A stretch of DNA of 64,000 bases from Shigella phage SF1-1. This document shows, piece after piece, positions 41,435 to 49,628 of the stretch (position 1 is the stretch's first letter; each line of letters opens with the position of its first letter). Made by a program: the position numbers and the translations under genes. The stretch lies in sequence record PQ571307. One strand, written 5' to 3'. Below the pieces are notes generated by a model. That model was not told the DNA's origin and ran no database searches. It saw nothing but the letters and a program-made list of their open reading frames with translations.

Positions 41435-41463
41435 ATCATGAGAATGAGAATAATTATCATTCG
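41435..41463. promoter_or_regulatory. Fur-box-like AT-rich palindromic motif (copy 1)
   Basis: ATGAGAATGAGAATAATTATCATTCG, about 13 of 19 matches to GATAATGATAATCATTATC. Confidence 0.25.
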
Positions 41464-41621
41464 TATTCAATGACTTATGCAAGGCTTATGCCAACGTAGC
41501 GACAAAGTGGGCCACTTGATTATAAATCACACAAACACTTATTTATCAATGGTTTGGCAACTTCATCATATGACGGAACATTGTCAACTGATCCCGCTCA
41601 TAACAAGCAGACTATTATTTA

Positions 41622-41643
41622 TATGAGAATGATTATTATTTAA
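41622..41643. promoter_or_regulatory. Fur-box-like motif (copy 2)
   Basis: ATGAGAATGATTATTATTTAA. Confidence 0.2.
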
Positions 41644-42683
41644 ACGTTTATTAACATAAAAACTAAAATAAATCAAGAATTTTCTGATTTTATTTACGTT
41701 TAAGAGAAGATGCTCAACATATCGCTACGCGATAGTATTCGCCCCCGTAATATTTGCTCTTTTCTTAGTGCTCAACATTCCCGCCCGTGGCGGTAACATT
41801 TCGCCCCCAAAATTATTGACTTTTATTCTATTATGTGCACACTATGCAACCTGTCGCTACCGACCGCCCTCCGGTCGGGGTAGCATCGCGCTATTCGCTC
41901 ATGTTGCTACGTGCAATTATTCATCTTGCTAATGATTTCATATTGTAACCATTACAATGATTATTGTTATTGCGCTAATGTTATGATCTTGGTAATTACA
42001 TATAATGCTAATAATAAGCCAGCGCAATAAGTGTAAGCGTAATTACGCTTGCAATTATTGCAAGCTACGCAATAACAAGAAATAACCGTCACCGATGGTT
42101 ATGATTGTTGGGGTGTAGTTGGCTTATTATTAGCTCGCTATGTGTCCGGCATAGCGTGCTAATGATGACTCTGTGAATGATTCGTTTTGTAATGATTTCA
42201 TTCAGGCACTATTTTGCTAATAGTTATTATTTTAATGGTTTCGTTTGTTATTGTTCGTTAGTTGGTTGTTTTGTCGTGTTATCGTTATCTTGCTTAGTAT
42301 TCATCATGGTTTGATTGTTTGTTGTTATCAATCATCTTGCTATTATTCCTTTGATTATGATTAGTTTGCTTATTGTTTTATGTTGTTTGTTGGTTAGTTG
42401 TTGCGAACTATTATCAACATGATAGTTATGCGCTTATATTGCATAGATAATCATGGGTAGATGATAATGGTTATCATTGCACTAGAAAGGAGGTAAAAAG
42501 GTGTTTTTGATGGTTTGTTGTTGGTTGTTGATCGATTTTAACCGCTATAAATGGCTCTCTAACAGCCTGTTGCCCTGGGGTGTATGGTTATTCGTTTAAT
42601 GGCTGATTAGCTCGATACCGCGATTTATTCAATTTTATTCTGTGTCGGTTTTTCATAGGCGAAAGCTATCAACATTGTTCGGG

Positions 42684-42711
42684 CAAAAAGAAAGGGCGCT
42701 TGGTGCGCCCT
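42684..42711 (-). terminator. rho-independent terminator (minus strand)
   Basis: Minus strand reads AGGGCGC-accaa-GCGCCCT followed by TTCTTTTT, directly after the 42727 stop. Confidence 0.6.
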
Positions 42712-42726
42712 GGTATGAAATGTTGT

Positions 42727-43110
42727 TTATTGATAAGCTGGATCGTTTGTTATATCAATCCAATGAGCTAAATTAATTTTATTTTTTGCTTTCATTTTCT
42801 CGATCAAACGTTCGGCTAATGTTTCTGAACGAATATAAACGTTTTCGCTAAAATCTTGCCCCGTTTCTTCGTCGATCATCTCACGATATTCGATTTTTCC
42901 GATAAACGCGTGATTCAGCGCATAAGTTTTACCCGTGTACCAGTTATGTAAATGGATCTCACATTTATAATCATCGCTATACCCTTCGGTTGTTCTAACT
43001 TCAACCAGGTCGCCTTTAAACACTGATAAGCACCACATAGGATCACGGTCTACAGCGCCGTTAAAGTCTTTACCGTTTACAGTCGCTGCCAGGTTGATGA
43101 TATTGCTCAT
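42727..43110 (-). CDS. hypothetical protein
   Basis: Preceded by a promoter/stem-loop cassette; higher GC than the surrounding blocks. Confidence 0.5.
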   Translation of the reverse strand: MSNIINLAATVNGKDFNGAVDRDPMWCLSVFKGDLVEVRTTEGYSDDYKCEIHLHNWYTGKTYALNHAFIGKIEYREMIDEETGQDFSENVYIRSETLAERLIEKMKAKNKINLAHWIDITNDPAYQ

Positions 43111-43130
43111 CGTGTAATCCTCTCGTTTGC

Positions 43131-43192
43131 TTTGGGAACTATTCCCGCCGCCCTATGAATTAAATATACACTATCTCAAAATGATTGCAAGC
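43131..43192 (-). repeat. promoter + GC stem-loop cassette (PeSL-like) 1
   Basis: Minus strand: TTGCAA, 16 bp, TATATT, 10 bp, GGGAA-tag-TTCCC palindrome, RBS, ATG. Confidence 0.55.
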
Positions 43193-43207
43193 CTTTTTCT
43201 AAATTAT

Positions 43208-43492
43208 TTATGCAGTAAACAAACCATCATTTACAACGGCGGCGATGATCTCCCGCGCCATTGATTCAGGGAACGGGTCGCTATAGTCCTGGCTTGTCTC
43301 GTCGCTGTCTGTTATCCAATGATAAGCCAACGAGTAAAAGCCTTTACTGCTTGTTTTCAGTGATATGATGATCACACGATCAAGCCCATCGGTAAACGTT
43401 GCCGTTAATGTGCTATCATCTTGCATCGTGCCGGACAAATAAGCGGCATCATTAACCATGGAAAACATTAGCACGGTGTTAGCTTTACGCAT
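43208..43492 (-). CDS. hypothetical protein
   Basis: Preceded by a GGGCGC-atcaa-GCGCCC hairpin; likely co-transcribed with the upstream small gene. Confidence 0.45.
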   Translation of the reverse strand: MRKANTVLMFSMVNDAAYLSGTMQDDSTLTATFTDGLDRVIIISLKTSSKGFYSLAYHWITDSDETSQDYSDPFPESMAREIIAAVVNDGLFTA

Positions 43493-43534
43493 GATTTCAT
43501 CCTCAAAGGGGGCGCTTGATGCGCCCTTGTTATG

Positions 43535-43681
43535 TTAATCCTCTAAATCTGTCCAATTGTATTTGTCACTCTTCCCGCGCTTTGTTTTATTACGCTTGTC
43601 GCCTTTTCGGATCACTTCCTCATTCCAGGCCTTACGGATCTTGGAAGATTGAATTTTTTCTGCGCGATTAAATGTATTCAT
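43535..43681 (-). CDS. hypothetical small basic protein (48 aa)
   Basis: ATG after AGAGGAAACA directly downstream of a cassette; not in the ORF track. Confidence 0.35.
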   Translation of the reverse strand: MNTFNRAEKIQSSKIRKAWNEEVIRKGDKRNKTKRGKSDKYNWTDLED

Positions 43682-43692
43682 TTTGTTTCCTC

Positions 43693-43755
43693 TTTATATG
43701 AGCGGCACCATTGCCGCTATATTGTTAATTTAAGTTATTTTGTAAAATTGCCAAG
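43693..43755 (-). repeat. PeSL-like cassette 2
   Basis: TTGGCAA ... TATAGC then GCGGCA-atgg-TGCCGC hairpin. Confidence 0.45.
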
Positions 43756-43760
43756 GTTTA

Positions 43761-48238: not shown

Positions 48239-48241
48239 ACC

Positions 48242-48514
48242 TTAAAGCAAAAACGCTACATCTTGCGCTTTTAGTGTAGTATCAACCATTTTCGGGCTTT
48301 TATAATCCACAAAGCGCGCGGTTTTTTCAATAGCAAAACCGAGATAATCTTGTTTATTGAATTTACATTCTTTCTTAAATGTTTCCCGCGCCACGGTGAT
48401 CGCTGCGTCCAGGGATAAACGCCCGTCAATGTTGATATTTGCGAAAGATCCGCCACCGCTCACAGGTTTACCAGTGGTGCCAGCTACGATCATTGTTGCG
48501 CTATATGATGCCAT
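48242..48514 (-). CDS. hypothetical protein
   Basis: Internal ATG (track ORF start runs into the upstream cassette). Confidence 0.45.
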   Translation of the reverse strand: MASYSATMIVAGTTGKPVSGGGSFANINIDGRLSLDAAITVARETFKKECKFNKQDYLGFAIEKTARFVDYKSPKMVDTTLKAQDVAFLL

Positions 48515-48537
48515 GATTATAATCTCTCTTCTGTTGT

Positions 48538-48600
48538 GAGCGGCTGGACCATTCCGCCGCCCTATGTGATACATCTTATCAGGTTGTTGGTTGTTGTCAA
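48538..48600 (-). repeat. PeSL-like cassette 13
   Basis: TTGACA ... TAAGATGTATCACATAGGG ... GGCGG-N-CCGCC hairpin. Confidence 0.5.
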
Positions 48601-48606
48601 TACTTT

Positions 48607-48804
48607 TTATTCTATTCCTGCAATCTGATTAACGCGTTTGCATTTTGTAGCGTGCTGGTCTTCTGTAATTACTCCCATTTCTAACAGTGAATCAATGAAA
48701 GATAAAACCGTTTCATAATCATCCTGGGGATGACTGAACTCAGTAAAACCGTTTACTACCACGTTTATTTGTCCAGCTTTCGCCACAATGTGCAATGTCG
48801 CCAT
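48607..48804 (-). CDS. hypothetical protein
   Basis: Internal ATG after TGGAG (track ORF start runs into the cassette). Confidence 0.45.
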   Translation of the reverse strand: MATLHIVAKAGQINVVVNGFTEFSHPQDDYETVLSFIDSLLEMGVITEDQHATKCKRVNQIAGIE

Positions 48805-48817
48805 GATTTTAACTCCA

Positions 48818-48890
48818 AATAATGAGCGGCACCATTGCCGCCCTACGTGGTAAATATTATGCCGCCACCTGGCGAACGTCAATCGCTTTT
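48818..48890 (-). repeat. PeSL-like cassette 14
   Basis: TTGACG, 17 bp, TAATAT, 11 bp, GGCGGCAA-tgg-TGCCGC, then TGGAG RBS and ATG. Confidence 0.55.
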
Positions 48891-48991
48891 TCAATCTTTT
48901 TTATTTTCTTTTTGCTTGCTATATATAAAGGAAAGGGCTATCATCTTTCTACCGCGCCAACCAGGGCGCACAACAAAGAAAGGGCGACACC

Positions 48992-49264
48992 ATGACAAAT
49001 ACTACATTACACCTTATGCACTCATTGGGCTGGCAAGGCGGCACCGTTCACCAGGTAGCAAGCCATACAGGGTTAACCGTGATGGAAGTCCTAGACTTAC
49101 ACACTTTCCCAATATCAAATGTTATAGCCCACGGACACGGCTTAAAGGCGGTAAAAATGTGTGTAGTGGATATATGCGGCGCAGCCTATTCAACGTGTGG
49201 TTATAAACCGGATCGGATCTCCTTTTGGCGTGGCGTCTTGGACGCACAAAATGTGCAAAAATAA
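48992..49264 (+). CDS. hypothetical protein (uncertain)
   Basis: 90-aa plus-strand ORF in a GC-richer segment; weak RBS. Confidence 0.25.
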   Translation: MTNTTLHLMHSLGWQGGTVHQVASHTGLTVMEVLDLHTFPISNVIAHGHGLKAVKMCVVDICGAAYSTCGYKPDRISFWRGVLDAQNVQK

Positions 49265-49266
49265 TG

Positions 49267-49296
49267 TTGACAACCTGGCGTAAGCTGGGCTAAACT
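49267..49296 (+). promoter_or_regulatory. sigma70-like promoter with no downstream ORF
   Basis: TTGACA, about 17 bp, TAAACT, followed by about 700 bp without ORFs. Confidence 0.35.
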
Positions 49297-49513
49297 GTAC
49301 CCATACAGAAGAGTAAACGCCACCCCACGGCGTAAAGGCGGGGCTAACATACCAGGGCGCTGGTTGGAAGGTTGATCGCCGGTAGGCTGGGCGCTATATA
49401 TTTGTAAAGAAATGTAAAGATAAAATAATCGCTTGCTTTCCTGGCTGGATCTGTTATTCTTATTACATGGCGAGGGGACACGGGAGCGCGAGACAAACAC
49501 CGCCCCTGCGCGT

Positions 49514-49544
49514 CATTCTCTAAATGAGAATGATTATCATTTAC
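49514..49544. promoter_or_regulatory. Fur-box-like palindromic motif (copy 3)
   Basis: CATTCTC-taaat-GAGAATG palindrome overlapping GAGAATGATTATCATTTAC (about 15 of 19 to the Fur consensus). Confidence 0.3.
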
Positions 49545-49587
49545 CTTATTGAATAAGAATAAATCTCATTTATAAACTTAAATGCGA

Positions 49588-49628
49588 ATCATTATCATTT
49601 GCATTTCCATATGAGAACTCTTCTCATT
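49588..49628. promoter_or_regulatory. Fur-box-like motif (copy 4) plus ATGAGAA-ctc-TTCTCAT palindrome
   Basis: GCGAATCATTATCATTTGC followed by a 17-bp palindrome. Confidence 0.25.

Follow-up and report, generated by a model that had tools for sequence, protein, structure and literature searches.

Fur-Type Boxes at the Locus

The DNA considered here is a stretch of 64,000 nucleotides from Shigella phage SF1-1 (record PQ571307), called the window in what follows, and the elements in question are copies of an AT-rich palindrome that resembles the operators of the host iron regulator Fur. Five strong Fur-box loci are present, with cores at 41445-41459 (box A), 41624-41638 (box B), 42462-42476 (box C), 49525-49539 (box D), and 49583-49597 (box E), together with a weaker one at 49613-49631. 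They lie in two noncoding gaps of 65% AT, gap 1 holding boxes A-C and gap 2 holding boxes D and E. The credible genes around the boxes are all on the minus strand, except for one short plus-strand open reading frame (48992-49264), and a canonical sigma-70 promoter, TTGACA-N16-TATAxT, is found for each of the small genes from 42.7 to 48.9 kb. Over 41-50 kb the window is 92-96% identical to the E. coli myoviruses of the genus Phapecoctavirus (phAPEC8-like), and judged by this identity its source is a virulent myovirus of that kind; the same region has no match among 5,426 complete E. coli genomes. The present analysis shows that the phage sites are equivalent in sequence to validated Fur operators, enriched over expectation, restricted in location, and conserved.

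The sequence-only reading had placed the motif at about 41438, 41622, and 49523, with a related copy near 49588, and all four are found at coordinates within 6 nt of those. The 18-mer ATGAGAATGATTATCATT occurs as an exact copy at 49524-49541, with one mismatch at 41444-41461 and 41623-41640, and with two mismatches at 42461 and 49582, while the related copy, GCGAATCATTATCATTTGC, occupies 49584-49602. When up to three mismatches are allowed, the 18-mer gives nine matches at five loci, the expectation from shuffled sequence being 0.23. The best copies (41440-41458 and 49526-49544) agree with the Fur consensus GATAATGATAATCATTATC at 16 of 19 positions, so that the proposed match to the consensus stands and only the count of 15 of 19 needs correction. 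The locus at 42461-42478 and the weaker unit at 49613-49631 had been overlooked.

Box A (41440-41464) consists of two overlapping 19-mers 6 bp apart around the 7-1-7 core TGAGAATAATTATCA, scoring 18.6 and 16.4 bits with a position weight matrix (PWM) derived from E. coli operators only. Box B (41622-41643, tATGAGAATGATTATTATT) scores 14.9 bits and shares 18 of its 19 positions with the ryhB operator of E. coli, AATGAGAATGATTATTATT. Box C (42457-42481, core TGATAATGGTTATCA), situated in a noncoding stretch of about 1 kb inside the right genome end, scores 16.1 bits and has a 6-bp-offset partner of 9.2 bits. The strongest site, box D (49520-49544, AATGAGAATGATTATCATT), reaches 20.1 bits, which exceeds every E. 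coli operator on the same scale, and agrees with 17 of the 19 positions of the fecI operator. Box E (49578-49602) is again composed of two overlapping 19-mers (core TGCGAATCATTATCA; 13.5 and 15.2 bits). Boxes D and E are part of a phased array of four units with a period of 29 bp, starting at 49521, 49550, 49579, and ~49609. The second unit, D′ (49550-49573, TGAATAAGAATAAATCTCATTTA), is degenerate, with 8.0 bits only, and the fourth, E′ (49613-49631, GAGAACTCTTCTCATTCTC), is a weaker Fur-like unit of 14.0 bits that forms an inverted repeat with box D. Three sub-threshold Fur-like matches of 11.9-13.1 bits are also seen, at 41953, 42001, and 42216.

The 7-1-7 form TGATAATnATTATCA is fitted by all five loci with at most two mismatches each, and in four of them a second, overlapping match lies exactly 6 bp away (41440/41446, 42457/42463, 49520/49526, and 49578/49584). 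The phage boxes thus have the 7-1-7 inverted repeats and the cluster architecture of Fur sites in E. coli, in which overlapping sites offset by 6 bp bind multiple dimers (Chen 2007, PMC2189734).

Comparison with E. coli Operators

The comparison DNA consisted of 106 kb of E. coli K-12 with 10 control regions, namely fepA-fes, fepD-entS, fepB-entC, fhuA, fur, tonB, cirA, ryhB, fecI, and fecA. A symmetrized phage PWM was constructed from the five phage 19-mers alone, and an E. coli PWM from the K-12 operators alone, the base composition of the window serving as background. Fur boxes are textbook bacterial operators, and the phage-only matrix recovers them: on the K-12 DNA its first four ranks are the ryhB, fecI, fepB-entC, and fhuA operators, and 10 of its 11 top matches fall in Fur-regulated promoters, which account for 2.4% of that DNA (binomial P ~ 8e-16). 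In the reciprocal scan, the E. coli-only matrix, which converges to the consensus given above, assigns the phage sites 20.1, 18.6, 16.4, 16.1, 15.2, and 14.9 bits, the 10 operators themselves giving 9.7-18.7 bits. The five strong boxes are accordingly at the level of genuine operators.

In gaps as AT-rich as these, one has to consider that the boxes arose by chance or are a by-product of promoter or terminator sequence, especially as the left half of box D and an upstream TCATTCTC form a hairpin that was reported by a terminator scan. The background calculations speak against this. Eight matches of at least 14 bits are observed in the window, compared with 0.42 expected from its composition, and under a first-order model of the gaps (65% AT) the corresponding numbers are 7 and 0.02, with none of 1000 simulations reaching 7. 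The outcome that the sequence-only reading had named as fatal to its proposal, namely scores no better than those of AT-rich sequence once the background is corrected, is therefore not what the scan gives. The canonical early promoters (TTGACA-N16-TATAxT) carry no boxes, the boxes are kept across genera, and the hairpin contains three G-C pairs only and is not conserved as a structure; for the latter reasons an intrinsic terminator at box D was rejected as well. With the E. coli PWM, no match above 12.6 bits is obtained in the rest of the phAPEC8 genome (~90 kb). The chance explanation, to which we assign a negligible probability, is effectively refuted by the matrix tests, the simulations, the conservation, and this absence elsewhere in phAPEC8. 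The other window matches of at least 14 bits (22207 and 37186) lie inside open reading frames and are single, without a 6-bp partner.

The identification as Fur boxes is thus strongly supported on computational grounds by the reciprocal matrices, the hexamer arrays with 6-bp offset, the confinement to two noncoding regions of a genome of ~150 kb, and the conservation in position across genera. The phage sites share with the ryhB, fecI, fhuA, and fepB-entC operators the same 19-bp motif, the 7-1-7/hexamer array, the 6-bp overlap, and the range of scores. They differ from these operators in being located on a strictly virulent phage genome and over no identifiable -35/-10 elements, two of them in the terminal repeat and the others downstream of a promoter, with no iron-related gene adjacent.

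Terminal Repeat and Genome Ends

Boxes A and B are contained in the direct terminal repeat of 328 bp that forms the physical genome ends (41387-41714). The record of phage WPEC4 starts and finishes with the same 328 bp (100% identity), equal to window 41714→41387, other records have their start at 41387 or their end at ~41715, and a terminal repeat of 328 bp has been reported for Phapecoctavirus (Korf 2019, PMC6563267). We therefore consider gap 1 to be the junction of the physical ends. The possibility that 41.4-49.9 kb is a long terminal repeat like that of T5 was rejected, as the repeat spans 41387-41714 only. Box A is 58-72 bp from the boundary at 41387, box B is 76-90 bp from the boundary at 41714, and box C is about 750 bp inside the right end.

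A divergent genus (phiWec179) shows the same layout, as do Justusliebigvirus phages infecting E. coli and Serratia. In the relatives, positions A, B, and C score 14.7-21.8 bits with an A-B spacing of 179-195 bp, and the surroundings are only patchily alignable. Position A is kept in nieznany, SKA64, phiWec179 (20.9 bits), PATM (19.0 bits), and Serratia phage KKP_3264 (18.7 bits); the position equivalent to box B reaches 21.8 bits in Justusliebigvirus; and position C is kept in phiWec179, nieznany, and SKA64 (16.1 bits) and in PATM/KKP_3264 (18.3 and 14.9 bits). The fraction of invariant alignment columns in gap 1 is 0.64 in the boxes versus 0.38 outside, a second pair of values for boxes and flanks being 0.60 versus 0.30.

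The position of these two boxes suggests an alternative in which Fur, instead of controlling transcription, would serve as an architectural host factor at the genome ends. It would mark or bend the DNA for terminase cutting and duplication of the repeat, or would form a complex with the first-entering DNA. IHF at the cos site of lambda and the DnaA boxes proposed for the injection stop of T5 provide analogies for such a role. Boxes A and B are inside the terminal repeat, at the short distances given above from boundaries that share one word, and both the layout and the A-B spacing are kept between genera. However, a distance of ~8 kb separates boxes D and E, which lie beside a promoter, from the genome end, and the literature searched yielded no role of Fur in packaging or DNA entry, and nothing about how Phapecoctavirus DNA enters the cell. 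On balance, an architectural function is regarded as unlikely, although it is the most serious competitor.

A number of other features were noted around the repeat. The word at its two boundaries (41377-41390 and 41705-41718) is AGAAG(A)TGCT(T/C)AAC; it is kept across genera and is a candidate recognition site for terminase or nicking, and more copies of TGCTCAAC occur at 41769 and 41071. Just inside the right-end copy of the repeat, 41730-41870 contains the GC-rich hairpins CCCGCC-CGTG-GCGG and CCGACCGCCCTCCGGTCGG and repeated GGGGGCGAA words, which may be terminators or structured DNA. The region ~41900-42520, read on the minus strand, is A/C-rich and nearly G-free noncoding DNA with recurring ATCATTAGCAAGAT-like words. 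Its GC skew is positive on the plus strand, and the skew profile was uninformative as a hint to a replication origin.

Promoter P1 and the Phased Array

In gap 2, a predicted promoter on the plus strand, P1 (49403-49460), precedes the boxes. It comprises two copies of TGTAAAGA (49403-49410 and 49413-49420), a -35 hexamer TTGCTT (49433-49438), a 16-nt spacer, and a TGt-TATTCT -10 element (49455-49460), with a predicted start at ~49467. The promoter is conserved in Phapecoctavirus, Justusliebigvirus, Vequintavirus, Seunavirus, Certrevirus, and Klebsiella phage KP13-26, and across the relatives the hexamers and their 16-17 nt spacing are constant, while the spacer sequence is variable. We infer that P1 is a sigma-70 promoter. 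Between P1 and box D there is a G/C-rich block of 44 nt (49469-49512, plus strand, GGCGAGGGG...CCCCTGCGCG), which is 100% identical between Phapecoctavirus and Justusliebigvirus and recognizable in Vequintavirinae.

P1 and the G/C-rich block are followed by Fur boxes whose number ranges from one to six among the phages, and in phi92-like and rV5-like phages the positions of the boxes are retained. Box D itself was found in all eight homologues fetched, which represent five genera, and Vequintavirus has an extra box of 19.9 bits just upstream of P1. In the window, the phased array (49520-49631) covers approximately +55 to +165 of P1, with box D at about +57 to +75 of the predicted start and boxes D and E together at +57 to +133.

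A small RNA composed of P1, the G/C-rich block, and box D was considered and rejected, because RNAalifold yields only -7.9 kcal/mol for the plus strand and -6.5 kcal/mol for the minus strand, with essentially no covariation. The tRNA scan and the Rfam search of the locus returned no tRNA and no Rfam family. The arrangement of a RyhB-like small RNA, with the box over the -10 element and a structured RNA followed by a terminator, is not found either, since the box is downstream of P1.

Farther along gap 2 are two 72-bp direct repeats (49641-49712 and 49779-49850), 82% identical and rich in ACTTTAAAT words, after which TTGAGATAA occurs twice (49859-49867 and 49882-49890). These repeats may be iteron-like or packaging elements. 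The TTGAGATAA pair resembles copies 2 and 3 of the T5 'direct repeat A', which are ~80 bp from the end of the T5 terminal repeat.

Relation to the Injection-Stop Region of T5

A BLAST search with gap 2 also retrieves T5-like siphoviruses, with 85-100% identity over window 49552-49607. At box E, the T5-like Salmonella phage LmqsSP1 shares a 31-bp stretch with the window at 100% identity, and the identity is 85% over 51-55 bp in VEc33, HASG4, and JLBYU40. In T5 itself (AY587007), the E. coli PWM matches, with up to 16.5 bits, the region 9468-9637 annotated as 'direct repeat C copies 1-4 / palindromes E-I'. Among the annotated repeats and palindromes of the T5 segment these are the only ones matched; the few matches elsewhere are isolated singles. 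The same arrays reach 18.7-19.4 bits in VEc33 and LmqsSP1. For the injection-stop repeats of T5, the passages of Davison's account devoted to them (10.1101/866236) describe the function as impossible to guess and make no mention of Fur, and an assignment of these repeats to Fur appears to be new relative to the literature searched. T5 also has two matches offset by 6 bp (16.7 and 14.2 bits) at positions 228-252, inside dmp and ~230 bp from the physical left end.

The parallel concerns the surroundings as well. The T5 'Repeat Region 3' (direct repeat C, Davison's DRE repeats) contains phased Fur-type box arrays, as does gap 2 of the window, and in both cases the arrays abut a GCGAG...CCCTGCGC palindrome in a large noncoding region tied to the terminal repeat, with TTGAGATAA repeats further on. 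The G/C-rich block of the window resembles the T5 palindrome J (GCGAGCAGGCAATTGCCCTGCGC), which likewise adjoins the T5 boxes. The array at 49520-49631, the block at 49469-49512, and boxes A and B of the terminal repeat thus reproduce the combination of a direct repeat C/DRE array, a GC-rich palindrome, and a noncoding location linked to the terminal repeat. The two systems differ in other respects. T5 has 7-8 DnaA boxes (eight in most T5-like phages) and nine TGTGCAAATCCGACA repeats, both of which are missing from the window: neither gap contains a perfect TTATCCACA, the only DnaA box with one mismatch being TTATCAACA at 42411 in gap 1, with none in gap 2. The T5 terminal repeat is 10 kb long and carries the pre-early genes, compared with 328 bp in the window phage, and no P1-like promoter is seen by eye in T5.

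The T5 array bears directly on the architectural alternative. It adjoins the DnaA boxes on their right side, has a GC-rich palindrome and the 7.9% nick next to it, and covers the shear site of first-step transfer (9618). The array is part of the terminal repeat, and no promoter is annotated nearby. This location counts in favor of a role at genome ends. Against this stands the lack of a perfect DnaA box in the window gaps, in contrast to T5.

Candidate Binding Proteins

The short plus-strand open reading frame mentioned above, ORF X (48992-49264), is the only plus-strand gene of the neighborhood and encodes 90 amino acids belonging to phrog_19316, of unknown function. Relative to the early cluster it is divergently oriented, and P1 follows shortly after it. 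The N-terminus of the protein is nearly invariant and helix-turn-helix-like (MTNTTLHLMHSLGWQGGTVHQVA), and the AlphaFold model is all-helical with pLDDT 77 and has no PDB match with E < 1. The protein is 92% identical to its counterpart in Klebsiella phage KP13-26 and 47% identical to that in phAPEC8, which indicates mosaicism. Among the loci fetched, ORF X is present in Stephanstirmvirinae only.

The presence of this gene beside the gap-2 module makes it conceivable that the boxes are bound by another protein, encoded by the phage or a different host factor, with a specificity resembling that of Fur. The consistent preference of the phage boxes for the hexamer GAGAAT over GATAAT would be compatible with a distinct binder; however, GAGAAT also occurs in the ryhB, fecI, and fhuA operators. 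A tblastn search of the window with E. coli Fur gave nothing credible even at E ≤ 10, and the open reading frames of three T5-like pre-early segments have no detectable relative in the window. ORF X, which lacks a significant structural match, was not found in the box-carrying Vequintavirinae (rV5-like) and T5-like loci fetched, several of which had 400-bp flanks only. A binder of this type is therefore rated as very improbable, and the phage-encoded regulator that the sequence-only reading had offered as its second option is disfavored, the motif being common to T5-like phages too.

Host Fur is preferred as the binder because the motif equals the host operator and is common to phages that have no detectable protein in common in the sampled regions. 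In E. coli, all 13 predicted sites of 12-26 bits that were tested, ryhB included, were shifted by Fur (Chen 2007, PMC2189734), and given this precedent purified Fur would very probably bind the phage boxes in vitro.

Related Records

Scans of IMG/VR with anchor sequences recovered two loci and no locus, respectively. At the corresponding place of WPEC4, 15472-41068 of the window (~25.6 kb) is absent: sequence equivalent to window 41069 leads, after ~370 bp, to sequence equivalent to window 15471, so that the comparison indicates a large rearrangement or indel between close relatives. Several GenBank records labeled 'Campylobacter phage' (A12a, D1, C3, and others) contain rV5-like, phi92-like, or Seunavirus-like sequence, and the same applies to 'Acinetobacter phage ABPW7' and the 'Demerecviridae' Salmonella phage R7. 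The host or taxonomy labels of these records are probably wrong.

Proposed Role of the Boxes

The interpretation that we favor, with a confidence somewhat better than even, is that the boxes are selectively maintained, high-affinity operators for host Fur, and that Fur is recruited to them with a regulatory effect on P1. In an iron-replete cell, Fe2+-Fur dimers would occupy the boxes as the DNA enters, with at least two dimers expected per locus because the sites overlap with a 6-bp offset. In gap 2, where the array follows P1, the most likely effect would be an iron-dependent repression or roadblocking of transcription from P1. Every virion DNA end would carry a pair of Fur sites, because one box is located 60-90 bp inside each repeat boundary, and box C would constitute a third site near the right end. 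A nucleoprotein complex of Fur close to the ends may result. For the phage, the advantage could be, for example, that an early or terminal function is tied to the supply of iron for iron-dependent ribonucleotide reductases. The phAPEC8 genome encodes class Ia and class III ribonucleotide reductases, which provides a rationale for such a coupling.

Several observations weigh against this interpretation. The promoter scan found no strong promoter overlapping any box, such an overlap being the usual geometry of Fur repression, and the gap-2 boxes are downstream of P1 instead of over its -35/-10. P1 is directed away from the neighboring minus-strand genes, with no obvious plus-strand open reading frame downstream in this phage, and it is a clear promoter partner for the gap-2 boxes only. 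The location of boxes A and B in the terminal repeat, like that of the T5 array, fits an architectural role at least equally well, and the search for a phage-encoded binder covered 43% of the genome of this phage. For these boxes, an actual transcriptional consequence of Fur is given somewhat less than an even chance, and the iron-responsive control of nearby phage transcripts suggested by the sequence-only reading is a plausible hypothesis.

A third use of Fur binding has also been considered, in which the boxes would have no regulatory role in the phage and the replicating genome would act as a decoy that titrates host Fur and thereby derepresses the iron-uptake and iron-sparing regulon to the advantage of the iron-dependent enzymes of the phage. 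Titration of Fur in vivo by boxes in multicopy is well known and underlies the FURTA assay. Each virion genome would offer ~6-8 strong loci with at least two dimers each, the arrays of different phages contain from one to six boxes, their presence being kept throughout, and the two classes of ribonucleotide reductase would profit from additional iron. A sponge, on the other hand, has no need for the precise conservation of positions in the terminal repeat and downstream of P1, and whether the copy number is adequate hinges on the abundance of Fur in the cell. T5 degrades the host DNA early (Davison, 10.1101/866236; 10.64898/2026.04.02.716235), and derepression of host genes would therefore be pointless there. 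The decoy function is thus considered improbable, more so than the architectural one. Regulation of P1, an architectural role, and a decoy function all share the same first step, i.e., the binding of Fur.

Conclusions

The occurrence of Fur-type boxes in these phages is real, statistically robust, and conserved. No prior report of Fur sites in them was found in the literature searched, which covered Fur together with virulent or lytic phages, T5, and titration. From the sequence comparisons, the arrays are best classed as host operator arrays co-opted by virulent phages. Sites for host factors occur in other phages, such as those for IHF at lambda cos and attP, the LexA boxes of temperate phages, and the Fur control of stx in Shiga-toxin prophages. 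As in those cases, a phage keeps sites for an abundant host DNA-binding protein, either to read the physiology of the cell or to borrow architecture. Those cases concern temperate phages or other proteins, whereas here Fur arrays are encountered in several families of virulent enterobacterial phages.

A more far-reaching idea, which we put forward as a speculation with little probability in its favor, is that Fur-box arrays form the shared core of modules for genome ends and early control in several virulent enterobacterial phage families, the T5 injection stop included. Host Fur, together with DnaA in T5, would then be a physical checkpoint on incoming or terminal phage DNA, which makes the delivery of the genome, the processing of its ends, or the onset of the early program dependent on the iron status of the host. 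The coincidence of the motif with the injection-stop repeats of T5 provides in any event a testable hypothesis for an old problem.

If Fur binds the boxes, these phages would, from the very beginning of infection, sense the iron status of the host or make use of one of its abundant proteins. This would bear on the efficacy of phages in the iron-limited environments of the gut, the urinary tract, and the blood, the settings in which phAPEC8-like, rV5-like, and phi92-like phages are used therapeutically.

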